A stretch of 64,000 nucleotides of DNA from Bacilli bacterium (GTDB lineage Bacteria > Bacillota_I > Bacilli_A > RFN20 > CAG-826): NCBI GenBank assembly GCA_045597865.1, contig JAZLKX010000025.1:64001-128000 (forward strand), written 5' to 3'. Of the stretch, positions 43,601-55,259 are shown in pieces (within the stretch, counting starts at the first letter, position 1; each line of letters begins with the position of its first letter). Below the pieces are notes generated by a model, which saw nothing but the letters and a program-made list of their open reading frames with translations, was not told the origin of the DNA and did no database searches. The position numbers and the translations under genes were made by a program.

Positions 43601-46495
43601 CCATCTGCAACAAATCAAAAATGCTGGAACGTTACATTCTCAGGAAGTGTTCCAACTATTAAGACTGAAACAAGTACAGACGGTACTTGGCGTTATATTA
43701 AATACAATAAGGGCTCAGGACAAGAGAGATTCTCCGGTTATGTTTCTGGACAAGAAGCCATTGCAATCTATAAAAAGACTCAAACTCCAATTGATGAACC
43801 TTCAATTATTAAATTTAGTGCATCAATTGTGAAAGATTCCCAAGGTGTTGAAAAAACATTTAATGAAGGAGACCCGATTACAGTTAATGATTTTACATGT
43901 TCAACACTCAATGACTTAAATGAAACTTCGCCTGTAACTGCAACTGATGTTAATCCAACAACATTAAATTCTGGAGTAAACGAGGTTACTGTTTACTATG
44001 GAACATGGAGTACAAAAGTAAGTGTTAATGCTGCTGAAGTTGCTCATTTAGATTCTATTGAAGTTGTTGCAAATACGGGCAAACGCGCATTTGAACGCGG
44101 TGATACATTTACATCAGATGGTCTTGAAGTAATGGCTCATTATAGCAATACTGATAAAACAAAATTCCCAGATCATAAGGTTACTGATTTTGAAATTACA
44201 ACTACCCCTGATATGACGGTTCTTGGTAATCAAAATATTGGTGTCTCATACACAGAGAATGGTGTTACAAAAACAACAAGCTATACCATTACTATTAACC
44301 CAAAAACATCTACATGGATTACGATTTCAGGTGAAGGTATTACTGGTTCTGACGGTGAATATTATTTGACTTCAGAAGTTACAAATAATGTCGCTTTAAC
44401 ATTTGGAAAAGATGGTGAGGAAGAAACAGTTAATTCATCAACAACTTCATCGTTCTTGTCATTCGCAAATGGTGTACTTTCTATCAATTCAAGTACAACA
44501 ACTAGTGAACAAGGCGATATTACATTCTCTGCAGGTAATGCTAGTGCAAAATTAACTGTTACCGTAACAGCACAAGAATCAATCACATTAATTTCAGATG
44601 AAGAAGTTAGCGGATTTATCGGTGATGAATTTGATGTTGAAATTGCATTAGGCAATGTAGGAAGTGCTGAATGGACACTTCCATCTAGCACTGATGGATT
44701 TACAGTTACAACAACTTCCAAAGATAATACTGGTTTTGTTGGTACAATTTCGGTTTCAGAAGCTTGTGTAAATAAAGAAGCAGTATTTAGTGTTTTAACT
44801 GGAAAAGGAGAAACACTAAGTGTTTCAGTTTACATTACTGCTATTTATGATGCTATCGATTCTATTTCAGCAACATGTTCTAAATCATATGTTGCAGGAC
44901 AAGATACATTTAATCCTTCAGATTTAACTGTTACTTATGAAAGATTATCAGGTGCAACTGGAGCATTAACTCCAGATGAATTTACTGTAACAGGCGCACC
45001 TACAGGCAAGCTTGCACGTACTTCTTATAATTTAACAATTACTTCTATAGAAGGTAGCAAGACATGTAACTGTACAATTTCTGCAGACATGCCAACAGGA
45101 TTAAATGTTGTTACGTCACACACAGAAGAAATACCAGGACAAACAACAGTTACCTGGAGCAAACTTACTAACAAGACTCAAGTTGATGCAAATGAAAAAG
45201 TTTATATCTACAACAGTACCAAAGGATATGTTACTGGTTACAATGGGTCCGATGCCACAGTTTCATCTACTTCATCAGATAGAGTTGAATTCACAATTAG
45301 TGTTGTAGATGCAACCCAAGGAATATTTAAATTATGTGATCCAAATACACAAAAATATATAACATATTACACATCAAATAAGTTTGGTATTACTTCATCA
45401 GCCTCAGATAGTGCAGGAGCAATCTTTAAAATTAATGAAGATGGTCATTTCGAATGTGTTAGCAAAGATAATACAACAAGTAGATATTTGTGTGCTAACG
45501 GAAACTATCTACGCATGTATACCGCAATTGGCTCTTATACGCCATTTGACTTATATATTTCAAAAACAACTCCAGGCACACCAACTTATGTCACAACATA
45601 TACAAATCACGAAAGTATGTCTGGAACAATGTTTGACTTCATTAATAGATGGGGTGGAACAGAATTAACAGCTGCAAATTGGGGTGACATCTTTGATTCA
45701 GATGAATATAAAGCATTAACAGCTACCGATAAGGAATGGTTCAAAAATGGTGTAGCAGCTGATGATAAAGGAACAATGGAATCATGTGAAATGTTCGCCG
45801 ATTTCATTACTAAATACGATGAATTAGTTGCTATCAATGGTTTAACCAATTACTTAGTAAGAACTCCATTATCAACATACACAATCACAATTAATTATGA
45901 TAATGGTGAAGAAAACGGTACTGCAAAAGTTATCCAAGGCGAAAAATATACATTGCCAGATAAACCAACAAAGGACGGTTATGTTTTCAAAGGCTGGACA
46001 GTTGGTTCAGGATCTGATTACTTACAACCAGGCGATCAAATCGATGTTTCAGGAGATATCACAATTAAGGCAAACTGGGTTGTAGGCATTACATTCTCAA
46101 GTGAAGTTGGATTTAAGTTCACTGGTCTTGATATAACTAGATTCCAACTCATCTTCAATGGTACATGTCCAGACGATGCTGAATCATATGGCTTCTTGTA
46201 CACAAAGAAAGATATTGATTTAACCAAAGTTGATATTGATGAAGCAATTGCAGGAAATGTAAGTGGAGTTGCCACAGTAACAGGAAAGAACCAAGCAGTA
46301 CTTGGTACAAGTTATGGTTCTACAACTGTAACAGTCGTCTTCTATTACGTCGATGCTGATGGAGATGTTCAATACAGTGATCCAATCACAATGTCATTTG
46401 ATAGTTACGTAACATCAGATGAATTTGATATCAGTATTGTTGATGATGTATACGCAAAACTCTGTTTAGAGTATTACATTGCAAATCTTAAATAA
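40613..46495 (+). CDS. Giant secreted Ser/Thr-rich protein with multiple bacterial Ig-like domains and an InlB B-repeat
   Basis: SD aaggag, signal peptide MKRKNFLKK...ETRA; repeated GL.V.A.YS Ig-like (group 3) units, WTSSNTGIATV, GYVFKGW. Confidence 0.8.
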   Translation: MKRKNFLKKLAAVTLGFVMTLGVGAAGYAASASETRAASDTFSMSSNYSSTSSTNSKLVWADDYVTITQEKGTGSSFSTSYTTAPRWYSGNTITFIPASGVTITQMVFTTSQGNAAAGTWSSGSGSANTWTGSCSQTFTESHPSTQSRPTSIAITYTAGSTKTVTSIAISGDMSKKTYTTDDSFDSAGLTATATYSDASTGDVTSSAEFAFIPASPTVGLTSVGVTASYGGKTSPSFTVSGLTVTAPTTQKVTIKIADIASQKSWTNQTKYTSFTTGVLTFTASGGTNTGKYYSASPGTWRFYSSDSPKGSLSISIQSGYKIKSVTSNPTATFSVAQDGKTASFTASSNINFSEFVVEYEQDGPSHDVTITGTTTTVYIGKTITFTAGCTASDTISWTSSNTGIATVANGVVTGVSAGKTTITASCAGGGSDSVEVEVKADVKTLVSITASGATNTFTLGDSFVTTGLVVTGEYSHTDGSGNTFETISSGISTTPSAGSKLNTQGSQNVTVNAGGKSTTYSITVNYAAVTGIAPAVEEQDMGPGDEFVFTASVSPENANPKYTVSASSDDLVEGEDYIFDDGDVLILDDTKEGTLTLTFTSTGKDSGGNSKTCTTTINVSAQHIPQVVEFTASGTPTKAKQYRNATFSLDLSGITITGTFDDESTQTFNSDQFSWNTTGEHPVGTYLLNDELDVTVYSITLEDDGLGSIAFVDGCDMTNKEYWVGDNWNFAGLAIEGKYKSGPDFTLDTSKVSFTTSSTTSAASDSMSIVVTAHYQGFSGTEPTKIITGIKVKAVTMTSLTVSYTGGQPVLGTDFVFAGTITANYSNGDTQPITDFSTVTIGDVNKFILDEQTITVTHKTTGASGTFKVQYKTKTIRYQTVWTKVSSIAAGDVVTFVYEGTDTASYATGWAKSDNTLSSNFLNVNMNGSVTTEGGVTTLNLATDSETSQVINPYELTVVDTSSTLSETVAFKDGDYYVQASSAKSSSNYLGSTSGAPSATNQKCWNVTFSGSVPTIKTETSTDGTWRYIKYNKGSGQERFSGYVSGQEAIAIYKKTQTPIDEPSIIKFSASIVKDSQGVEKTFNEGDPITVNDFTCSTLNDLNETSPVTATDVNPTTLNSGVNEVTVYYGTWSTKVSVNAAEVAHLDSIEVVANTGKRAFERGDTFTSDGLEVMAHYSNTDKTKFPDHKVTDFEITTTPDMTVLGNQNIGVSYTENGVTKTTSYTITINPKTSTWITISGEGITGSDGEYYLTSEVTNNVALTFGKDGEEETVNSSTTSSFLSFANGVLSINSSTTTSEQGDITFSAGNASAKLTVTVTAQESITLISDEEVSGFIGDEFDVEIALGNVGSAEWTLPSSTDGFTVTTTSKDNTGFVGTISVSEACVNKEAVFSVLTGKGETLSVSVYITAIYDAIDSISATCSKSYVAGQDTFNPSDLTVTYERLSGATGALTPDEFTVTGAPTGKLARTSYNLTITSIEGSKTCNCTISADMPTGLNVVTSHTEEIPGQTTVTWSKLTNKTQVDANEKVYIYNSTKGYVTGYNGSDATVSSTSSDRVEFTISVVDATQGIFKLCDPNTQKYITYYTSNKFGITSSASDSAGAIFKINEDGHFECVSKDNTTSRYLCANGNYLRMYTAIGSYTPFDLYISKTTPGTPTYVTTYTNHESMSGTMFDFINRWGGTELTAANWGDIFDSDEYKALTATDKEWFKNGVAADDKGTMESCEMFADFITKYDELVAINGLTNYLVRTPLSTYTITINYDNGEENGTAKVIQGEKYTLPDKPTKDGYVFKGWTVGSGSDYLQPGDQIDVSGDITIKANWVVGITFSSEVGFKFTGLDITRFQLIFNGTCPDDAESYGFLYTKKDIDLTKVDIDEAIAGNVSGVATVTGKNQAVLGTSYGSTTVTVVFYYVDADGDVQYSDPITMSFDSYVTSDEFDISIVDDVYAKLCLEYYIANLK

Positions 46496-46516
46496 TGAAA
46501 TTAAAGGAGAAAAATT

Positions 46517-46639
46517 ATGGAAAAAGTAAAATATACATTGCCAGAAATTGAAGTTGTTGATTTAACCGATGATTTCATTATTACTACATCTGGTTGGAAC
46601 GATTATCCTGAAGATGGCGATCTTGATGATTTAGATTAA
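46517..46639 (+). CDS. 40-aa peptide with YxxPxIE...IITTS motif (not in ORF track)
   Basis: SD aaggag; MEKVKYTLPEIEVVDLTDDFIITTSGWNDYPEDGDLDDLD*. Confidence 0.75.
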   Translation: MEKVKYTLPEIEVVDLTDDFIITTSGWNDYPEDGDLDDLD

Positions 46640-46674
46640 AAGAAGCAATCATCTAATAAATATTGGGATATATT

Positions 46675-47280
46675 ATGAAAAAAGAAAACACTAATTACAA
46701 AAACAATTTGTCTCTTATAAAAAACGATGTTAAATATATTCAGACAAATTATAAAAAATACAATGGAATAGATGCTGCTGCAGAAATAATGAAAGCATCA
46801 TATAACTTTGCAGAAAAAGAAATGGAAGAAGAGATTTGTAGAGGAAGGGAAATTGGGAGTACAGTTAACTTTTTGTTCATTATAATTGGTTTTTTCCTTG
46901 CAGCGTATATTTCATTATTTATATTTGCACGCGGAAGCGAATTATCAACTTTATTGAAAGTTATTTTTGGCATCGCTGGTGTGTTGACCATTCTTGTTTT
47001 AGTTTTGCTAATTATTAGTGTCATGTATTTCAAGAAACATTGCATGCCTTCGCCTATGAACACTGCTATTAAATTATTAAGTAACTATAAAGATAATGAA
47101 GTTGATTTCATTAAGGATAAAGATGCTTTATTCGAAGCTGATTATGTATTGGAAAATGAAATAAAATTCAATCAAATGGTTAAAGAAAACTCTATTAAAT
47201 TAATTTTGACAAAAATAGCAGCAATTGGTGTTGGCGTTTTGTTTACATTATTAATTGTTATTTTATTTTTATTATTTTAA
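46675..47280 (+). CDS. 3-TM membrane protein A
   Basis: Two adjacent hydrophobic helices, loop, C-terminal helix; paralog of 47721..48326. Confidence 0.7.
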   Translation: MKKENTNYKNNLSLIKNDVKYIQTNYKKYNGIDAAAEIMKASYNFAEKEMEEEICRGREIGSTVNFLFIIIGFFLAAYISLFIFARGSELSTLLKVIFGIAGVLTILVLVLLIISVMYFKKHCMPSPMNTAIKLLSNYKDNEVDFIKDKDALFEADYVLENEIKFNQMVKENSIKLILTKIAAIGVGVLFTLLIVILFLLF

Positions 47281-47299
47281 ATAAAGGAGAAATGATAGT

Positions 47300-47482
47300 A
47301 TGCCTCAAAAATTACTTGAAAGAACAAAAACTCCTCAAAAAGATTGGGATCCAATCGGTGGAGGTAATAGAAGTCATAAAATTAATGAAGAATGGGGTCC
47401 TCTAAGTCCAGACGATTCTTCAAATGAAAGAATAAATGAAGAATGGGGTCCTCTGAATGGCGATAAAGGCGATGATCGTTAG
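47300..47482 (+). CDS. 60-aa peptide with duplicated INEEWGPL motif
   Basis: SD aaggag; aatgaagaatggggtcctct occurs twice in frame. Confidence 0.7.
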   Translation: MPQKLLERTKTPQKDWDPIGGGNRSHKINEEWGPLSPDDSSNERINEEWGPLNGDKGDDR

Positions 47483-47606
47483 AAATTTAATAAATTATTT
47501 ACTTGTTATTTAAAAAAACTCATATACTTATTAGTATATGGACGTAATTGTTATAGTATGGTCACTCTTTTAAAATAATAATGAATGATTTTCGAAGGAA
47601 AAAAGT

Positions 47607-47708
47607 ATGAATATTCTTTATTTTATTAATTTAATTAATGATGATAAAAAGCCATCAACAAACAATCCTGGTGGAAACGGTACGGAAACGCGCGGACCTA
47701 TAAGATAG
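47607..47708 (+). CDS. 33-aa peptide with GGNGTE motif (not in ORF track)
   Basis: gaagga upstream; MNILYFINLINDDKKPSTNNPGGNGTETRGPIR*. Confidence 0.55.
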   Translation: MNILYFINLINDDKKPSTNNPGGNGTETRGPIR

Positions 47709-47720
47709 AGGAAGCGGGAA

Positions 47721-48326
47721 ATGAAGGACTTTATTGATAAAAAACGTAAAGAAATTGAAAAATTAAATCCAAAAAATCATGATAAAATTTTTGCCGATGG
47801 ATTAAAAACAAGTTTAGATTTAGCTATTAATAGTTACGAGGAAGAATTAAGAAGATCTGAAAAAATCCAAAATTCAATTACTGGTTTGTTAACATTTGTA
47901 TCTTTTCTTTTTGGTGGCTTTGTAATATTTATTGTAAATTTTAAATTTCAATATTTTAAATGGGATTCTTTCCTTGTTATTCCAGAAGCTATTTTGATAA
48001 CTGTTATTATGATATTGCTAATCATTGCAACAAGATATCATTCATATGAGTGTTTCGTTAATCCTGAAAAACAAGTTATTGGCACTTTCGATAAATTAAT
48101 TCATGACTATGGTGTTATAGATAATAAGTTTATACCCGGTTTAAAAGAAACTATTTTATTGTGCGATTATGTAAGAGTTTTTGATTCTGTTCAATTAGTT
48201 AATGATAAAAAGAAAAAAATGCTAAATTTTTCAGCTATCTTATTAAGTATTTTTATTTTCTTATTTTTAATTAGTTTAATATTAACAATTGTTGGAGGGT
48301 ATGCAAATGCCATTAAACAAAACTAA
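47721..48326 (+). CDS. 3-TM membrane protein B
   Basis: Same topology and shared motifs (EEE.xR, LLII, DYV, N..K) with 46675..47280. Confidence 0.7.
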   Translation: MKDFIDKKRKEIEKLNPKNHDKIFADGLKTSLDLAINSYEEELRRSEKIQNSITGLLTFVSFLFGGFVIFIVNFKFQYFKWDSFLVIPEAILITVIMILLIIATRYHSYECFVNPEKQVIGTFDKLIHDYGVIDNKFIPGLKETILLCDYVRVFDSVQLVNDKKKKMLNFSAILLSIFIFLFLISLILTIVGGYANAIKQN

Positions 48327-48444
48327 TAGATTTAACAAAAGAGCAAAGTTTAAAAAACGCTTGATTCGTAAAATGAGGCGAATATGCCTATCTAAAAAAA
48401 GTAACGGTGGTAATGGAACTGAAAAAAGAATCGGGATTGAGTAA
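48301..48444 (+). CDS. 47-aa basic peptide with GGNGTE motif (not in ORF track)
   Basis: SD ggaggg; MQMPLNKTNRFNKRAKFKKRLIRKMRRICLSKKSNGGNGTEKRIGIE*; start may be 48307. Confidence 0.55.
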   Translation: MQMPLNKTNRFNKRAKFKKRLIRKMRRICLSKKSNGGNGTEKRIGIE

Positions 48445-48455
48445 AAAGAATTAAT

Positions 48456-48947
48456 ATGCCTTGTAATAAAAATTTGGTAATAAAAACTCTTGAAAAAGAA
48501 TTAACTAAAGTAGATTTAATGCAAGGAGAGTTTCTTAATCCTGGCACAAGAGAGATTTCCCTGAGTTTTAGAGTCGGATCTGTTTACGGGATTTTTGTTC
48601 AACTTAATGATGAAGAAATAGAACAATTTAAAAAAGATCTAATAAAATATGGTGGTTTCTATAAAAATCGTTTACTAAATTGGAAACCAATCAAAGATAA
48701 TTTTTATCCTTTATATTGGGGTTCAGATCAGTATATAGGTAGTCGTTTATTAGCGCATAGTAAAAGCCCAGTATCTACTGGAACGCTTCATTTGAATAAT
48801 AGAAAAGAACTTATTGATAAAAAAATAATATATGGAGCAATTCTTTGCGATGATTATAAGGAATCTGAGAAAAGGATGCGTAAACTTTATCCTGATGTTT
48901 ATAAAACAAAATCGAGGAAAAAGAATAATAATTTAGGAGACGATTAA
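48456..48947 (+). CDS. GIY-YIG-like nuclease (divergent)
   Basis: SVYGIF ... LYWG..IGSRLLAH ... ESE..YP pattern. Confidence 0.5.
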   Translation: MPCNKNLVIKTLEKELTKVDLMQGEFLNPGTREISLSFRVGSVYGIFVQLNDEEIEQFKKDLIKYGGFYKNRLLNWKPIKDNFYPLYWGSDQYIGSRLLAHSKSPVSTGTLHLNNRKELIDKKIIYGAILCDDYKESEKRMRKLYPDVYKTKSRKKNNNLGDD

Positions 48948-48949
48948 GA

Positions 48950-49336
48950 ATGTCAAAACCACACGAAAATCAAATTTATATTGTTTCATTGAGCGAAGAA
49001 CTTAATTCTATTGAAAAATTAAAAAATAACAAATATTCTATGCCTGTTGGTCATAGATATTTATCATATCCTCCTGAGTATATGGGTTTTAGATATGATC
49101 GCAAATTACAAAGAATCAGTCATGTTGATAAAGTTGGTTATTTTTATGATTCAAGAGGTTTTTTGAATTTTGAATTTGAATTAGGACCAAATCTTCTAGA
49201 TCCTAGTGTTTGTATTAAACCTGGCAAAGGTATACAAGATGCTCGTAAATGGGTTGATTTTGATTTGCTTTTTGAACCAGGCACCACAATTGTTAAAGCT
49301 GCGCATAAAACTAAATTAAGACATTCTAACAACTAA
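48950..49336 (+). CDS. Hypothetical protein
   Basis: 128 aa ORF, aggaga upstream, 2 nt after previous stop. Confidence 0.6.
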   Translation: MSKPHENQIYIVSLSEELNSIEKLKNNKYSMPVGHRYLSYPPEYMGFRYDRKLQRISHVDKVGYFYDSRGFLNFEFELGPNLLDPSVCIKPGKGIQDARKWVDFDLLFEPGTTIVKAAHKTKLRHSNN

Positions 49337-49465
49337 TTTTTTGTTAAATCATTTAATTTTTTTCTATATATCTTATTAATATAATTAAAAAAATAATTAA
49401 AATTTATTTTCATTATTTTGAAGATAAAAATAAACCTTTTTGGTAAACTATTTAGCAGTTTTAAT

Positions 49466-50716
49466 ATGAGCAACATTATTTCAGATATTTACTTTTCTAG
49501 AGCATTTAGAAGATTGGGCGGTAAAACTCAACTTTTTAGTAATTATAATAACGATCATTATCATAATAGGTTAACTCATACTTTAGAAGTACTTAAAATT
49601 GCCGAAGAAATTAATTCCAAAATAGAAAAGCCAGCAAATGGATTTATTCTTGAGGCAAGTGCTTTGGCACACGATTTAGGGCATACTCCATTTGGACACG
49701 CTGGTGAAAGAGCACTAAATGAAATTACTTATCAAGTTGACACATTAGATAAAACTATAAATCCAGATTTCACAAATAAGATAATTTTTAAACATAATTA
49801 TTATTCAGCAAAGGTTCTTCTTGGAATTTATCGAGAGCAAGAAAGAATAGATAAAATCTTAATAGCAATCGTAAATCACACAAAACTTGATTACACACAA
49901 TATGTATTGAGTAATGATGAAAAGAAAACAACTTTAAGTTTTTATCTATCAAATTATTCAAGAAGAAAATCTGTCTTAAAGAAAATAAAAGACAATTTTA
50001 TAGAAGCTCAAATAATTGCGATGGCAGATGAAATTGCTCAACGAATATCTGACCTTCATGATATTATGCTCTCTAAAGCAAAAATAATTAATTGCGATAA
50101 GTTTACTGAGTTCTTACCTAAGGAAGAAGCAGAGAAAATTCTTGGTTATCCTAACTCTTTTAGAGTTAAAGATTTATTGTCAGTTTTAAAAGATTTCTTA
50201 TTATCTGGTGTTTTCTATGATTTAAAAACCAATTCATTAATTATGGACAATGATCAAAAACACACTATGGATTATATAGATAAAATGCGAAATGAAGTTA
50301 TAAACAATGTTTCAGTTATTTCTGAATTTGATAAGCATAGTAGTGAAGTAATCAAATATTTTTTTAAGTCATTTTATAAAAATCCAAAATTATTAGATGA
50401 AAAAACGATTTCTAATACATATAAGAGAATCATTTCTATATACAATAGTTTTGATGAAAAAGTAGTGATTAATAAACAATTTCAACCTAAAATTGATAGC
50501 TCATTAATTGACGAAAAAATATCTTACTTAACTTCTATATCTAATATTTGTATTAACTCTATTGACAAAAAACTTGATCTTAACAAAATTGACGCACATT
50601 TTTTAAAGGATATTAACTCTGAATTAGTTCATAGTATAATATATTATATAGCCAACATGACTGACAGATTCGCTAACGAAAAATATAGTGAATTAAAAAG
50701 AAAATTAGAAAGTTAA
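49466..50716 (+). CDS. dgt: HD-domain dNTP triphosphohydrolase (dGTPase family)
   Basis: SRAFRRLGGKTQLF, HNRLTHTLEV, AHDLGHTPFGHAGE, ADEIA..DLHD, YIANMTDRFA; start uncertain (49418 TTG possible). Confidence 0.85.
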   Translation: MSNIISDIYFSRAFRRLGGKTQLFSNYNNDHYHNRLTHTLEVLKIAEEINSKIEKPANGFILEASALAHDLGHTPFGHAGERALNEITYQVDTLDKTINPDFTNKIIFKHNYYSAKVLLGIYREQERIDKILIAIVNHTKLDYTQYVLSNDEKKTTLSFYLSNYSRRKSVLKKIKDNFIEAQIIAMADEIAQRISDLHDIMLSKAKIINCDKFTEFLPKEEAEKILGYPNSFRVKDLLSVLKDFLLSGVFYDLKTNSLIMDNDQKHTMDYIDKMRNEVINNVSVISEFDKHSSEVIKYFFKSFYKNPKLLDEKTISNTYKRIISIYNSFDEKVVINKQFQPKIDSSLIDEKISYLTSISNICINSIDKKLDLNKIDAHFLKDINSELVHSIIYYIANMTDRFANEKYSELKRKLES

Positions 50717-50760
50717 AAATACATGTTGACAAACGATAGTGTTGGTTATAAAATTTAGTC

Positions 50761-50836
50761 AATTAAACGAACGGTGTATTGCCGTGAGCAACTGCTCAGA
50801 TAAACATCCTTAAACGTTGAGGATGTTTTTCTTTTG
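50761..50836 (+). ncRNA. Putative small RNA downstream of dGTPase
   Basis: TTGACA(50726)-17-TAAAAT, two short hairpins, terminator aaacatcct/aggatgttt and T run, no ORF. Confidence 0.5.
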
Positions 50837-50880
50837 CAAAAAACTTAAAGACAAAAGTTTGTAAAACAACAAAAAAATTA

Positions 50881-51180
50881 TTTTGGCGAAATATCGTACT
50901 TAAAAATGCCGATAACCCGCCAAAATGCATCAATTTTAATATGTTTTGGCGGCTTATCCGCTTAAGCAATAAGTGACGTACTTTTATAACTTGTTAGAAC
51001 TTTTTAGAATTAACAGCATTTCAACTATGTTTCATTGATATATCAACATCGTTGTACAAACACATAAAAATTTGGAATTCTCTTGCGAATAGGGAATTTT
51101 TATATAAATATAATGTTGGGCACAGGGATTGGATCTCTGGTGGTCCATCGAAGTGCGGGAAGAACTCCCACTTTAATTTA
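50881..51180 (+). repeat. ~300-bp direct repeat copy 1 (contains structured element copy 1, core 51115-51175)
   Basis: Near-identical to 53259-53595. Confidence 0.9.
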
Positions 51181-51280
51181 TTTATAAACTTAAAACGATT
51201 TTTTTAATTAAATTTTTATTGACTAATCCCTTAATTTTGTATAAGATTTAAGGGAATAATAGAGCAATTGAGGTAAAAAT

Positions 51281-52327
51281 ATGAGAGAATTTAATTACAT
51301 TAAATTACAAAATAACAAGTGGGATTCTGAAATCTTATCTTTAATTGCTGGTATTTATAAAGAAGCCGGAAAGCAAGAAATGTTTTTAAAACAGACGCCT
51401 CAAAAATTGGAAAAATTGGTTGAAATTGCAAAAATACAATCTACTGAGGCTAGTAATAGAATTGAGGGAATAATTGCAACGAATGCTAGAATCAAGCAGT
51501 TATGCGCTCAAAAAACTACACCAAGAAATAGAGCCGAAGAAGAAATTGCTGGCTATAGAGATGTTTTAAATTTAATTCATGAAAATTTTGATGCTATTCC
51601 TTTGACAACAAATTATATATTGCAATTACATAAAACCCTTTACAGTCATATGAATAATCCTATGGCCGGAAGAACAAAAAATGTTCAAAATTATATTAGT
51701 GCTAGTTACCCTGATGGAAGAGAAGAAGTGTTGTTTACTCCTTTATCTCCAATAGAAACACCAAGTGCATTAGATAAAATTTGTGAACAATATAATTTAG
51801 TTATTGGCAACAACACTATTGAACCATTAATCGCTATCCCGATGTTTATACATGATTTTTTGTGTATACACCCATTTAATGATGGCAACGGAAGAATGAG
51901 TAGACTTTTAACAACAATGTTGTTGTATCAAAATGGTTTTTACGTTGCAAAATACATTTCATTGGAAGCAAAAATTGCCAATAACAAAGATACATATTAC
52001 GAATCTTTATATGATTCACAACTTGGTTGGCACGAAGAAAAAGAAGATCCTAATCATTTTATTAAGTATCTTTTAAGTACAATTTTATCGGCTTATAAGG
52101 ATTTCGGAGATCGTTATTCACTTTTGGAAGATAAAATGAGTGCTAATGAAATGGTGAAAAAGGCTGCTTTAATGAAAATTGGCAAATTTAGTAAACAAGA
52201 TATAAGAGAATTATGTCCTTCATTATCTATTAGTTCAATAGAAGGAGGGTTACGCCTTTTAGTCAAAGAAGGTGTTTTAGAAAGAATTAGTAAAGGCAGA
52301 TCTACTTACTATAAGCGTTTAAAATAA
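51281..52327 (+). CDS. Fic family protein with N-terminal inhibitory motif and C-terminal wHTH
   Basis: HPFNDGNGRMSR active site; SNRIEG inhibitory motif; C-terminal KGRSTYY wing. Confidence 0.92.
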   Translation: MREFNYIKLQNNKWDSEILSLIAGIYKEAGKQEMFLKQTPQKLEKLVEIAKIQSTEASNRIEGIIATNARIKQLCAQKTTPRNRAEEEIAGYRDVLNLIHENFDAIPLTTNYILQLHKTLYSHMNNPMAGRTKNVQNYISASYPDGREEVLFTPLSPIETPSALDKICEQYNLVIGNNTIEPLIAIPMFIHDFLCIHPFNDGNGRMSRLLTTMLLYQNGFYVAKYISLEAKIANNKDTYYESLYDSQLGWHEEKEDPNHFIKYLLSTILSAYKDFGDRYSLLEDKMSANEMVKKAALMKIGKFSKQDIRELCPSLSISSIEGGLRLLVKEGVLERISKGRSTYYKRLK

Positions 52328-52390
52328 TCCCTTAAATATTATACGAAATTAAGGGAATAAATATATTTTAAGGGAAAAAGTTTTATAAAT

Positions 52391-52535
52391 TGGTACCAAA
52401 AATCGTTTGAGTATTAAAATCGTGGTATCAAAACCTTTGAGCGTATGAATATGCACAAATTTATTAAAATTCATATGCTAAACTGGTATCAAATACCGTT
52501 TGAGTAAATAAAAGTTGGTATCAAACGCGTTTGAG
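52391..52535 (+). repeat. Four copies of TGGTAYCAAA-N(3-5)-TTTGAG
   Basis: Copies start at 52391, 52423, 52484, 52516. Confidence 0.8.
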
Positions 52536-52540
52536 TTGAA

Positions 52541-52657
52541 CATTGAAATTTGGAATCCTCTTGCAAATAGGGGATTTTTATATCAATATAATGTTGGGCA
52601 CAGGGATTGGATCTCAAGTGGTCCATCGAAGTGCGGGAAGTATTCCCGCTTTTATTT
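52541..52657 (+). repeat. Structured element copy 2
   Basis: cattgaaattt..gttgggcacagggattggatctc..gtggtccatcgaagtgcgggaag..tcccgctttt. Confidence 0.9.
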
Positions 52658-53258
52658 ATATTTTAAAAATTTCTCAAGTACATTGTGCAAGGAAAAATTG
52701 AGAAAAAAAGCAAAGTAAATATTGACAAAAAAGCAAAGTAAATGTCTCATTACCATTTGGAATTCATAGAAAATTAACAGTTAAAATACATTTTGACAAA
52801 CTATAGCTTTTGCTATCTCAGGATCAAATTGTTGAACTTTATTAATCTAGTAAGAATAATATTTCTGAACGAATAAAACATATTTTAGATAAGTATGAAT
52901 TGGATGAATATTCAGTTGTTCGGTTTTTCCAAATAACTGCTAAAGATAGTAAAAAACGCACCTCTACGTGGATTTTTTATTGTCTTGCTATATCTTAGTG
53001 TCAAGAAGGATGAGAGACGTAAAAAGACCACCCAATAAATTGGGCCAAAGATTTAAAAGACTGTTCTAGTAGTGGTGATGCTTTTTTCAGACTTATGGCA
53101 AATCAGTTCAAAGAAAACGTTAAACCTTATATAGAATTCGAGAAGAAGATGTGCAACAAACATCTTGATATATTTATAAGACTATAACTCTAAAAAAGTG
53201 ATTTTGAATTAGTCTAAGAATGATTTGATATTTCGCCAAAACATCATATTTTTATAAA

Positions 53259-53595
53259 TTTTGGCGAAATATCGTACTTAAAAAAGGTGATAACCCGCTA
53301 AAATGCATCAATTTTAATATGTTTTGGCGGCTTATCCGCTTAAGCAATAAGTGACGCACTTTTAGAACTTTTTAGAACCTTTATCAATCTTTTAGAACTT
53401 TTTAGAACTTTTTAGAACTTTTTAGAATTAACAGCATTCCAACTACGTTTCATTGATATATCAACATCGTTGCACAAACACATTGAAATTTGAAATCATC
53501 TTTCGAATAGGGGATTTTAATAATATATAATGTTGGGCACAGGAATTGGATCTCTGGTGGTCCAACGAAGTGTGGGAAGAAATCCCGCTTTTTTA
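53259..53595 (+). repeat. ~335-bp direct repeat copy 2 (contains structured element copy 3, 53481-53595, and an expanded 10-bp tttagaactt tract)
   Basis: Near-identical to 50881-51180. Confidence 0.9.
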
Positions 53596-53687
53596 TTTTT
53601 TAAAAATCTCTATTATAGTATTGGTACAAAAATCATAAACTTCCGATAAAACTTTCATAAACTTCCGATTAAAAACTTATTTTTTTT

Positions 53688-53794
53688 AAAATTCTCTTTC
53701 GAATAGGAGGATTTTTATATCAATAATGTTGGGTACAGGGAGCCATAATCTCTGATGGCCCATCGAAGTGCGGGAAGAACTCATGCTTTTATTT
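53688..53794 (+). repeat. Structured element copy 4 (more diverged)
   Basis: gttgggtacaggga..tctctgatggcccatcgaagtgcgggaagaactc. Confidence 0.85.
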
Positions 53795-53830
53795 ATATTT
53801 AAAGATCTTCCATTACATTGTTATGAAAAA

Positions 53831-53941
53831 TATCTTGCCAAACTTGCGGTTAATATCTTGCCAAACTTGCGGTTTATATCTTGCCAAACTTGCGGTTTAT
53901 TTTAATCCAAACTTGCGATTATAGAAATAATCATATATAAT
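53831..53941 (+). promoter_or_regulatory. 23-bp tandem repeats (3 near-perfect, 1 degenerate) overlapping promoter of the ATPase gene
   Basis: tatcttgccaaacttgcggttWa x3; the fourth supplies TTGCGA(53913)-17-TATAAT(53936). Confidence 0.8.
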
Positions 53942-53960: not shown

Positions 53961-55259
53961 ATGGAAAAAGAATACATTGAACGTTTATTTGATAAAGAGC
54001 TAGATTTTTATTTAAAAAGCGTTGGCGCCGTACAAATTACAGGCCCTAAGTGGTGCGGTAAATCAAGAACTGCAAAGAAACATGCCGCGACAATAATTGA
54101 TTTAATGAAAGAAGATGTTAGAAAACAATTTGTTCCATTAGCAAAGCAAGCTCCAAATATTTTGCTTGATTATGGAACAAAACCTTTACTTATCGATGAA
54201 TGGCAAATTATTTCTTTTATTTGGAATTCTCTTAAAGAAAAAATTGATGAAAACGGAACTTTTGGACAATACATTTTAACTGGAAGCGTAACAGATGCAA
54301 CGGTAGATGACAGTTTATATGGAGAAGAGAATGAAAGACATACTGGAACCGGTAGAATAATTAAAAAGATGATGAGAACGATGTCTCTTTTTGAAAGCGG
54401 AGATAGCACTGGTGATATTTCATTGAGCCAATTAAAAAAAGGCGCATTTATTAATGCAATTGTAGATAAAGAACTTACAGATTATGCATTTTATTTGTGC
54501 AGAGGAGGATGGCCTTTAGCAATTAAAGCAGATAGAGATATTGCACTTCAACAAGCAAAAACTTTTTTTAATGGCTTAGTAAGCGAAGATATTTTTTCGT
54601 TAAAAGACGTTCCTTTAAGAAAAGATGTAAATAGAGCAAAAAAATTGCTTAGATCTTATAGTAGAGTTATATCATCTCAATCTTCTAACGAAACAATAAA
54701 AACAGACATGAAAAATAATGGAGATGAAATAGATAAAGACACCTTTGCTAAATACTTATTAGCACTTGAAAGATTGTTTGTTATAGAAGAATTAACAGCC
54801 TGGAATCCAAATTTAAGAAGCAAAACTTCAATTAGAGATAAAAATACAAGACACTTTGTTGATCCTTCAATTGCTTGTGCAGCGTTAAATTTAACACCAG
54901 ACAATTTGTTTATGGATATGAATACGTTTGGCTTATTGTTTGAATCTTTAGCAATTAGAGATTTAAGAATCTATTGCGATTCAATTAATGCCTCAGTTTA
55001 TCATTACAGAGATAAAGCAGAAAGAGAAGCTGATGCAGTAATTGTTTTCGAAGATGATTCTTGGGCATTAGTAGAAGTTAAATTATGCAACAATGAAGAA
55101 ATAAAAGAAGCTTCCAAAAAATTAGTTAATCTTTCTAATGATATTGATATCACAAGACATCCGAAACCTGCATTTTTAATGATTATCACAGCTACAAAAA
55201 CAGCTTATAAGGATGAAAATGGTGTGTATATAGTTCCATTAGCTTGTTTAAGAAATTAA
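53961..55259 (+). CDS. AAA_14-type ATPase with C-terminal DUF4143 (PD-(D/E)XK-like) domain
   Basis: Walker A GPKWCGKS, Walker B LIDEWQ, ILTGS, RGGWP, FVDPS, GLLFE, EADAV..VEVK. Confidence 0.88.
   Translation: MEKEYIERLFDKELDFYLKSVGAVQITGPKWCGKSRTAKKHAATIIDLMKEDVRKQFVPLAKQAPNILLDYGTKPLLIDEWQIISFIWNSLKEKIDENGTFGQYILTGSVTDATVDDSLYGEENERHTGTGRIIKKMMRTMSLFESGDSTGDISLSQLKKGAFINAIVDKELTDYAFYLCRGGWPLAIKADRDIALQQAKTFFNGLVSEDIFSLKDVPLRKDVNRAKKLLRSYSRVISSQSSNETIKTDMKNNGDEIDKDTFAKYLLALERLFVIEELTAWNPNLRSKTSIRDKNTRHFVDPSIACAALNLTPDNLFMDMNTFGLLFESLAIRDLRIYCDSINASVYHYRDKAEREADAVIVFEDDSWALVEVKLCNNEEIKEASKKLVNLSNDIDITRHPKPAFLMIITATKTAYKDENGVYIVPLACLRN

Follow-up and report, generated by a model that had tools for sequence, protein, structure and literature searches.

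In a 64-kb window of a Bacilli bacterium (C25:64001-128000, with C25 denoting contig JAZLKX010000025.1 of assembly GCA_045597865.1), there appear to be two tandem copies of a two-gene module, in which a gene for a three-helix membrane protein (TM-A in module 1, TM-B in module 2) is followed by a coupled gene for a charged cytosolic protein of 45-60 amino acids (pep60 and pep45, respectively). The membrane protein and the small open reading frame (ORF) beside it are a conserved two-gene unit, and comparison of sequence profiles indicates that the membrane proteins resemble PycTM, an effector of Pycsar. Tentatively, and with less than even confidence, we read TM-A and TM-B as cyclase-free PycTM-like membrane effectors that are controlled by a small cytosolic partner in the manner of a toxin-antitoxin or abortive infection system, and that have been duplicated in a variable defence island of low guanine-plus-cytosine (GC) content. 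The source bin comprises 1.74 Mb in 58 contigs and is 96.9% complete with 5.4% contamination. Coordinates are positions in the window unless a contig is named.

The original prediction described two paralogs of about 200 residues with a topology of two transmembrane (TM) segments, a loop and one further segment, each followed by a small ORF with a Shine-Dalgarno (SD) sequence and the second also preceded by one, and all of these features are borne out. TM-A and TM-B (201 residues each) align by BLASTP with 31/128 identities (24%; 35.8 bits, E 1e-7), and a global MAFFT alignment gives 26% identity. A hydropathy scan places the TM segments at residues 66-84, 96-114 and 183-201 of TM-A and at residues 56-74, 84-102 and 173-191 of TM-B, with, in both proteins, 9-11 residues in the turn between TM1 and TM2 and 68-70 in the loop between TM2 and TM3. 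The N-terminal region and the TM2-TM3 loop each contain about 10-12 Lys plus Arg and 9-11 Asp plus Glu residues, and both are therefore placed in the cytoplasm. The small ORFs that had been named (pep60 and pep45 after the membrane genes, pep33 before TM-B) all exist, with two amendments to the list. The ORF after TM-B had been listed from a TTG at 48289, and the ATG at 48307, which yields pep45, is the likely start; a further small ORF before TM-A, pep40, had gone unlisted.

A profile hidden Markov model (HMM) of TM-A and TM-B was scanned with HMMER against 1,835,955,588 representative proteins and matched 14 of them at E <= 1e-3. All 14 are 173-206 amino acids long, with zero fused forms, and most are singletons from metagenome assemblies. 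They include an A-like group (P0003, P0005, P0007 and P0008; 23-42% identity) and a B-like group (P0004 and P0006, with 35% and 32% identity to TM-B). Word-based searches of 5.8 billion proteins gave, apart from TM-A and TM-B, no more than a 98% variant. Four distant members in other genera were added when sampled genomes were searched by HMM (overlapping samples of 200 from the family, 400 from the order, 400 from the class and 400 from the phylum), namely L018 (genome G289), L045 (G799), L047 (G468) and L052 (G659). The family, order and class samples gave three distant members as their only acceptable matches, and two samples from the same genus, with 10 and 21 genomes, did not yield the TM family. 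Across 17 aligned sequences, E53 never varies and R56 is found in 16/17; both lie just before TM1 within a Y..E..R...I motif, and an N..K motif precedes TM3. The most distant member, L052 (188 amino acids; reverse strand of G659:C3, 239163-242468), has a Gln in place of the invariant Glu. Twelve weak HMM matches (E 4.8e-5 to 0.0095) were left out, mostly for internal stops or part-model coverage, as were matches in G193, G311, G451 and G631 that were partial and lay inside much longer frames or contained stops; downstream ORFs played no role in excluding any match. Searches for related loci with the family in genome, viral and metagenome contigs gave zero relatives, and a search with P0017 yielded two matches, a 32-residue fragment at the end of a contig and a spurious one. 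Zero matches were likewise obtained by tblastn with TM-A and TM-B against phages and with P0009 against plasmids.

The pairing of membrane gene and small ORF was examined with a fixed rule, under which a partner lies on the same strand, encodes 38-75 amino acids, starts within 45 nt of the stop codon, is clear of other genes and has a grand average of hydropathy (GRAVY) below -0.8. Such a partner follows 6/6 family members and 0/8 canonical PycTM genes, the six being the members with readable DNA, of which the four foreign ones were picked from HMM hits, with P0003-P0014 outside the count. Homologs without an adjacent small ORF, which the original prediction had named as the finding that would tell against it, were thus not encountered, and the pairing extends to the four distant genomes. 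As listed, the partner ORFs encode 47-60 amino acids and start -37 to +28 nt from the membrane gene stop. In the background of this genome, a hydrophilic downstream ORF follows 15/1297 genes (a number that includes pep60, pep45 and three ribosomal-protein-like genes), and any free downstream ORF of 38-75 amino acids follows 84/1297.

Every family partner ORF has a strong SD or stop-start coupling, and the partners range widely in charge. In the window, the net charge is -4.4 for pep60 and +13.5 for pep45. The partner of L018 has 42 amino acids from its ATG, a charge of -8.5 and AAAGGAG 9 nt before that ATG, and the partner of L045 has 51 amino acids from its ATG (55 from the listed TTG, the 55-amino-acid form having a charge of about -13) and is joined to the membrane gene by a TAAtATG stop-start. 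L047 is followed by a 55-amino-acid ORF (+9.5) with AGGGGG, and L052 by two consecutive basic ORFs of 47 amino acids, the first starting 3 nt past the stop and the second being rich in proline and having a GGAGG of its own. In 4/5 pairs, the partner and the cytosolic parts of the membrane protein carry net charges of opposite sign, which is suggestive at best. Co-folding of TM-A (5-row alignment) with pep60 scored 0.00 in two runs and counts neither way.

Several indirect lines of evidence suggest that the peptides are translated. For pep60 (GRAVY -1.66), which contains an internal INEEWGPL repeat (33-nt repeat), a comparison is available with strain X1, represented by a 10.7-kb contig from another gut sample, in which 3/4 substitutions are synonymous in the pep60 frame and 1/4 and 0/4 in the other frames, a small sample of four substitutions. 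The GC content of pep60 is 37.7%, compared with 19.4% in the adjacent spacer. pep33 ends in GGNGTETRGPIR and pep45 in GGNGTEKRIGIE, and the motif common to them, GGNGTE.R, stands exactly 6 residues from the C-terminus in each. Four of the six motif codons differ between the two genes, each in a synonymous way at the third base; for the Arg, one gene has CGC and the other AGA. Any 6-mer common to pep33 and pep45 arose in 45/200000 composition-preserving shuffles, and the 58 six-frame pieces of the region have just one more 6-mer in common, which is from the reverse strand of the repeat in pep60 itself. The strain comparison and the common GGNGTE.R motif are the reasons for which the peptides look translated. 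TM-B is flanked by a tagged peptide on each side.

These results bear on the simplest alternative, that the small ORFs are chance frames or untranslated leader or spacer sequence and that the locus is just two duplicated membrane-protein genes, which we consider quite improbable. AT-rich DNA does give many short ORFs, as the figure of 84/1297 illustrates, and searches of Pfam, NCBIfam and PHROGs with the four peptides gave nothing significant; for pep60, the only match among the 5.8 billion proteins is pep60 itself. Chance would nevertheless have to produce hydrophilic partners at 6/6 loci against a background of 1.2%, with strong SDs or stop-start overlaps at the correct spacing, and to preserve GGNGTE.R through four synonymous changes and two different Arg codons. 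The bias toward synonymous substitution in the pep60 frame only, and the GC contrast with the spacer, also argue against it.

The likeness of the membrane proteins to PycTM and SLATT-type effectors, drawn originally from topology, stands for the former at the profile level and is not borne out for the latter. No SLATT model matches TM-A or TM-B at E <= 1, and none is among the 25 listed of the 33 families matched by the 14 members at E <= 0.1. For PycTM, the comparison profile was made from eight full-length canonical PF18967 proteins of the same class, in which canonical PycTM matches over the Pfam cut-off occur in 15/401 genomes. Alignment of the family with these eight proteins by hhalign gives a score of 61.7 (Prob 96.1, E 3.6e-9) over 145 columns that run from the helix before TM1 to TM3. 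Among the controls, two reversed alignments score 35-36 (at most 35.9) over 15-16 columns and 20 block shuffles that keep the layout of the hydrophobic segments score at most 33.5, and all 22 controls cover at most 42 columns. In reciprocal searches against the 1802 ORFs of this genome plus the eight canonical PycTMs, the family HMM places four PycTMs (2.8e-7 to 9.9e-5) next to TM-A and TM-B in rank, ahead of all remaining ORFs, among which the highest scorer is an unrelated 2-TM protein at 2.1e-4. The PycTM HMM, in turn, finds family members as its best foreign matches (1.7e-5 and 1.1e-4), and the family HMM matches the cyclase-linked PycTM of genome G732 at 5.1e-6. ORFs on contig C16 that match both HMMs weakly were set aside as unrelated 2-TM proteins. 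In a protein-language-model Atlas, 9/30 neighbours fall in a set with PF18967 on 11% of its members, which serves as a lead only. Among the canonical PycTM genes (L023-L042), up to five copies occur in a single small genome of the same class (G473), and in some of the genomes that carry them the match contains a TGA, a hint of a Mycoplasma-type genetic code.

Structure prediction gives a similar picture. The AlphaFold2 (AF2) model of TM-A (predicted local distance difference test, pLDDT, 73.9) contains helices at residues 4-25, 31-86, 92-117, 127-141 and 149-200, and the order of elements is equal to that in the model of a canonical PycTM (pLDDT 81.1). The long helix into TM1 spans residues 31-86 in TM-A and 12-50 in PycTM, the TM2 helix 92-117 and 65-96, the short helix that follows 127-141 and 122-129, and the long helix into TM3 149-200 and 134-181. 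The linker after TM2 is a coil at 118-126 in TM-A (pLDDT 51-62 at 121-160) and is free of helices at 97-121 in PycTM, where residues 104-112 and 116-119 are below pLDDT 50. The extra elements are the N-terminal helix 4-25 in the TM-A model and short helices at 6-9 and 53-61 in the PycTM model. A Foldseek search of the PDB with the TM-A model gave zero matches at E <= 1e-3, and the best hits of a wide VIA-align search (Z 11.4 at most, where about 13 is common for helical models) are all generic helical bundles. The solved EcPucTM structure is absent from the PDB matches of these fold searches.

Two features that mark members of the PycTM/PucTM superfamily are thus present in TM-A and TM-B: the three-TM architecture with juxtamembrane helices and a cytosolic loop, seen in the TM scan and the AF2 model, and profile similarity beyond hydrophobic composition. 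The likeness further includes a length of ~170-200 amino acids, a long cytosolic helix into TM1, a TM1-TM2 hairpin, a 50-70-residue loop, a long helix into TM3 and a defence-island setting. TM-A and TM-B differ from PycTM in that Y..E..R...I replaces the invariant Asp/Lys, TM-A has the extra N-terminal helix, a cyclase is lacking and a small ORF is next to the gene. Neither TM-A nor TM-B had a significant match in Pfam, NCBIfam, PADLOC or PHROGs. Sub-threshold matches to DUF2721 (0.0037), T6SS ExIF (0.011) and CBASS 2TM (0.033) were rejected as hydrophobic-hairpin noise, and 8xMP, which is matched by 4/14 family members (best E 2.1e-4), was treated likewise; a search of the literature on '8xMP' found nothing relevant.

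The absence of a cyclase or nucleotidyltransferase, which was originally claimed for the surroundings of the modules, extends to searches of the whole genome. Neither PF00211, nor the PycC of the same class, nor SMODS has a match at E <= 1 in the 96.9%-complete bin. There are zero cyclases among the ORFs of 44-52 kb and zero cyclase neighbours at the six family loci. Canonical PycTM loci, in comparison, have a neighbour gene with a cyclase motif in 6/8 cases, one of which is confirmed by Pfam (Guanylate_cyc, 3e-5). Two features that define a Pycsar or Pucsar system, an adjacent cyclic nucleotide monophosphate cyclase and an effector over the PF18967 gathering threshold, are both lacking here. 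It is very unlikely, in our view, that TM-A and TM-B are orphan Pycsar/Pucsar effectors gated by a cyclic nucleotide from a phage or from a host enzyme that is unassembled or unrecognised, with the small ORFs incidental. Remote homology to, and the same architecture as, the cyclic-nucleotide-gated PycTM would fit such a role, and a cyclase could be missing from a bin of 58 contigs with 96.9% completeness. The genome-wide search, the 0/6 cyclase neighbours compared with 6/8 at canonical loci, the 6/6 downstream small ORFs compared with 0/8, and the lack of conservation of the PycTM-invariant Asp and Lys before TM1 all point the other way.

Since no cyclase is present, the small protein is proposed to take over control of the membrane protein. 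It would bind the cytosolic face, made up of the N-terminal helix and the TM2-TM3 loop, and in the bound state would block the assembly or opening of a membrane-damaging oligomer, that is, a PycTM/PucTM-like channel. If the partner were lost, titrated or displaced, for example through phage shut-off of host expression, the membrane protein would depolarise the cell, following a toxin-antitoxin or abortive infection logic like that of SpoIISA/SpoIISB. pep33, which has its tag in common with pep45, may be a second regulator of TM-B or a competitor for the same site. We infer binding, toxicity, neutralisation and a defence role. To our knowledge, the only role described for PycTM-type proteins is that of an output of cyclic-nucleotide signalling. 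A search of the literature, in which supplements that possibly list such operons were outside the scope, found no description of a small protein that stands in for the cyclase as the partner of a PycTM-like protein.

A plausible mode of action for TM-A and TM-B is provided by analogy with the hexameric channel of EcPucTM and the disruption of membranes by PycTM. As described in the accessible portion of a 2026 preprint, PycTM and PucTM are 'pJV1-SpdB3 family 3TM' proteins, and apo EcPucTM is a hexamer in which the TM2 helices line a ~15 Å channel; it is the first such structure, a ligand-bound state not having been obtained by the authors (10.64898/2026.08.12.744502). According to the accessible portion of a 2024 paper, PycTM disrupts membrane integrity. 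A possible though rather unlikely variant of the proposal is that, in a cyclase-free branch of the Pycsar effectors, the small protein, in place of a cyclic nucleotide, gates a PycTM-type channel. Fast-evolving partners of strongly acidic or basic character would then close or open the channel from its cytosolic face, a phage would destroy, titrate or mimic the partner, and pep33 and pep45 would be a competing agonist and antagonist of TM-B.

The closest functional precedent, by analogy and without a sequence relation, is SpoIISA with SpoIISB/C. SpoIISA is a membrane toxin, and the antitoxins SpoIISB and SpoIISC, two small proteins of the cytosol from the same operon, bind and neutralise it, as stated in the accessible parts of the relevant papers (PMC4926146, PMC4526809, PMC3057836). 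The likeness is one of layout only: the toxin gene comes first, a membrane gene is followed by one or more small cytosolic genes (in 6/6 family members), and there can be more than one small partner, as with pep33 and pep45 or the two ORFs after L052. In SpoIISA, a large cytosolic domain comes after three TM helices at the N-terminus, whereas the cytosolic parts of TM-A and TM-B are the N-terminal helix and the TM2-TM3 loop. The Pfam models SpoIISA_toxin and SpoIISB_antitoxin have zero matches at E <= 1 to the TM proteins or the peptides. The 2TM effectors of CBASS and the SLATT effectors are also small helical membrane proteins in defence islands. The PADLOC match to the CBASS '2TM effector' is, however, confined to the TM-A hairpin and is not significant (E 0.033), and the genome is without a CD-NTase/SMODS match.

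If the proposal is right, the same membrane effector could be rewired from cyclic-nucleotide to protein-based control, and a membrane-toxin/small-antitoxin pair would exist outside Bacillus SpoIIS. The pair would provide a simple two-gene system (a 200-amino-acid and a 45-60-amino-acid protein) for studies of gating, toxicity and neutralisation. Neighbourhood analysis that is aware of small ORFs can tell apart sub-families to which domain searches are blind. The family, a tiny one, is from uncultured gut bacteria, and the function suggested here is read from sequence.

A number of observations weigh against the proposal. The Pfam PycTM model (PF18967) does not match TM-A or TM-B at E <= 1, neither protein is among the E <= 10 matches of the genome, and the model gives zero matches to the 14 family members at E <= 0.1. 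The conserved residues of the family and of PycTM do not align except for a Lys before TM3, and the PycTM-invariant Asp/Lys before TM1 is not aligned with the family Glu/Arg. The missing Pfam match and the misaligned residues make the relationship a remote one, and the similarity could in part reflect shared architecture. The small partners have no visible sequence similarity across the family, and with charges from -13 to +13.5 a single conserved binding mode is not evident. To these are added the way in which the six loci of the pairing count were chosen, the want of pep60 homologs and the small number of strain substitutions, all given above, as well as the surroundings of some family members, which adjoin housekeeping genes (cinA, gpmA). 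Such surroundings fit a stand-alone toxin-antitoxin pair and, equally, a role other than defence.

The latter is the substance of an alternative that we hold to be somewhat unlikely, in which the pair exists but the three-helix protein acts as a membrane anchor, channel or stress sensor and the small charged protein is its substrate, cofactor or signalling output, for example in a cell-envelope function tied to the surface proteins nearby. Besides the members among housekeeping genes, 2/6 lie directly 3' of a large surface-protein gene, namely TM-A in the window (Flg_new/Big_3) and L045 (G799:C4; MucBP/Cna_B), an adjacency that may be due to chance, as variable islands often adjoin surface-protein genes, or to a functional link. 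Not all relatives are suicide effectors, since pJV1 SpdB3, for which the superfamily is named, is a plasmid-spreading protein in the accessible portion of the structural report (10.64898/2026.08.12.744502). Conflict genes are nevertheless a better fit to the extreme patchiness of the family (14 in 1.84 billion), its strain variability, its low GC content and its dGTPase and Fic neighbours.

A locus for a peptide pheromone or bacteriocin, in which precursors are cut after Gly-Gly and the TM proteins serve in immunity or processing, is highly improbable. Both pep33 and pep45 have GG followed by exactly 10 residues, so that 10-amino-acid peptides would be released, and bacteriocin and immunity genes usually stand in this order too, the peptide gene first and the membrane-protein gene second. 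Class II bacteriocin loci have a dedicated ABC exporter with a C39 peptidase and, usually, a kinase or regulator, and no transporter, peptidase or kinase gene is at the locus; within 46-53 kb, genes for export or processing, such as an ABC transporter/C39 peptidase or a histidine kinase, are absent. The charged, hydrophilic character of the peptides, which lack signal peptides, and the absence of the GG motif from the partners of the other family members also speak against secretion. The regions before GG in pep33 and pep45 look unlike the consensus of double-glycine leaders.

The proposed membrane effector and its partner lie in DNA that varies between strains. Past the end of the surface-protein gene (46495), the GC content falls from ~36% to 24-30%; in the island it is 24-27%, compared with 35.3% for the genome. 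In the relatives that were searched, the island as a whole is absent. In strain X1, TM-A is 98% identical (8 synonymous and 4 non-synonymous codon changes) and module 1 is intact, and module 2 is decayed. It has lost pep33 and the first 25 TM-B codons to a 199-nt deletion, 4 nt are missing at 47904, and 64 nt stand in place of 47994-48779, the stretch with the remainder of TM-B, pep45 and two thirds of p163. At least one other strain thus has module 1 by itself. In a third sample, X5, a 199-nt contig with a depth of 3.8 connects 47487, just past the stop codon of pep60, with the final base of the dGTPase gene (50716), and a 7-nt TTAGAAA is found near both ends of the junction; as a single low-depth contig it is a weak hint. 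It suggests that pep33, TM-B, pep45, p163, p128 and the dGTPase gene form a 3.2-kb presence/absence block. Near-identical pieces of TM-B were found in a further sample, X6. Low GC, strain variability, patchiness and the dGTPase and Fic neighbours are together consistent with the behaviour of an accessory defence island. The features of the locus are listed in Table 1.

Table 1. Features of the module locus and its flanks (positions in the 64-kb window)
Feature	Positions	Strand	Description
Surface protein gene, 1968 aa	40589-46495		Flg_new + Big_3 domains
pep40, 40-aa acidic ORF	46517-46639	+	Strong SD AAAGGAG
TM-A, 201 aa, module 1	46675-47280	+	ORF; three-TM; remote PycTM-like
pep60, 60-aa acidic hydrophilic protein, proposed TM-A partner	47300-47482	+	SD AAAGGAG; start 20 nt past TM-A stop
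Spacer pep60-pep33, 124 nt	47483-47606		19.4% GC
8-bp inverted repeat (CATATACT-tatt-AGTATATG)	47521-47540		Just 5' of the module-2 promoter-like site; read from sequence
Promoter-like TTGTTA-17-TAAAAT 5' of module 2	47548-47576	+	Consensus scan, 9/12 matches
pep33, 33-aa ORF 5' of TM-B	47607-47708	+	SD GAAGGA; C-terminal GGNGTETRGPIR; ends 12 nt before TM-B
TM-B, 201 aa, module 2	47721-48326	+	ORF; three-TM paralog of TM-A
pep45, 45-aa very basic protein, proposed TM-B partner	48307-48444	+	GGAGGG 7 nt before ATG; 20-nt overlap with TM-B end
p163	48456-48947	+	163 aa
p128	48950-49336	+	Between p163 and the dGTPase gene
dGTPase-family HD phosphohydrolase	49418-50716	+	PADLOC dGTPase 1.1e-41; TIGR01353 9.9e-40, below cut-off
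Terminator-like hairpin 3' of the dGTPase gene	50802-50828		Terminator scan
Fic-domain protein (SoFic-like)	51281-52327	+	Pfam Fic 4.3e-18; PADLOC SoFic 2.5e-38

Promoter-like sites in the region are no more numerous than in shuffles, which makes the site before module 2 a weak one, and the inverted repeat just 5' of it is a possible operator. Rfam gave zero matches at E <= 1 over 46300-53900. Of the three neighbours originally named, the dGTPase and Fic genes are confirmed by the PADLOC matches in Table 1, and the GIY-YIG-like gene, p163, is so described from its motif and position only, with no Pfam match. The library scans that were negative for the TM proteins gave nothing significant for p163 or p128 either, and the PDB, searched by sequence with p163, had no match below E 0.17. 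A search of 180 relatives did not recover p128, and its neighbours in the Atlas are hypothetical clusters only.

A second locus, on contig C1 (113800-116900), has no TM modules and contains a surface-protein gene and a pep40-like ORF followed by a 178-amino-acid gene, a 131-amino-acid copy of p128 (54% identity) and a convergent gene for a 515-amino-acid HD protein. The 178-amino-acid gene, which by position corresponds to p163, matches GIY-YIG below threshold (E 3.5e-4; 21.3 compared with 22.6 bits). This arrangement suggests that p163, p128 and the HD gene are a recurring gene set; the TM modules lie between pep40 and this set only in the window. Since the contamination of the bin is 5.4%, C1 may stem from a co-binned relative and not be a true paralogous locus.

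pep40 belongs to a family of ~40-50 amino acids with an N-terminus of the form M-[EK]-K..Y..P.IEV[VI]..L.D.I.TSG and an acidic tail, for which there are zero matches in Pfam or NCBIfam. A tblastn search of the whole bin located pep40-like ORFs at C1:113843-113980, C18:47228-47383 (-) and C52:139133-139285. Three copies lie directly 3' of large surface-protein-like genes, which encode 1968 (window), 745 (C1) and 1004 amino acids (C18), and among these only the copy in the window has a TM gene next to it. pep40 was considered as a part of the module and rejected, as pep40-like ORFs travel with surface-protein genes elsewhere. Strain X1 has in-frame insertions in the tail of pep40.

Repeats are frequent downstream of the dGTPase gene. 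The Fic ORF is bracketed by a 35-nt inverted repeat (51224-51258 and 52325-52359; 89% complementary). A 125-nt repeat is present in two copies that are 94% alike (50880-51004 and 53258-53382), a 148-nt repeat in four copies (51041-51188, 52519-52666, 53458-53605 and 53656-53803), and a 23-nt tandem unit in 4-5 copies at 53807-53920, just 5' of a 432-amino-acid ORF (53961-55259). From its sequence, the repeat mosaic as a whole (50880-53920) looks like the boundaries of cassettes or a small mobile element.

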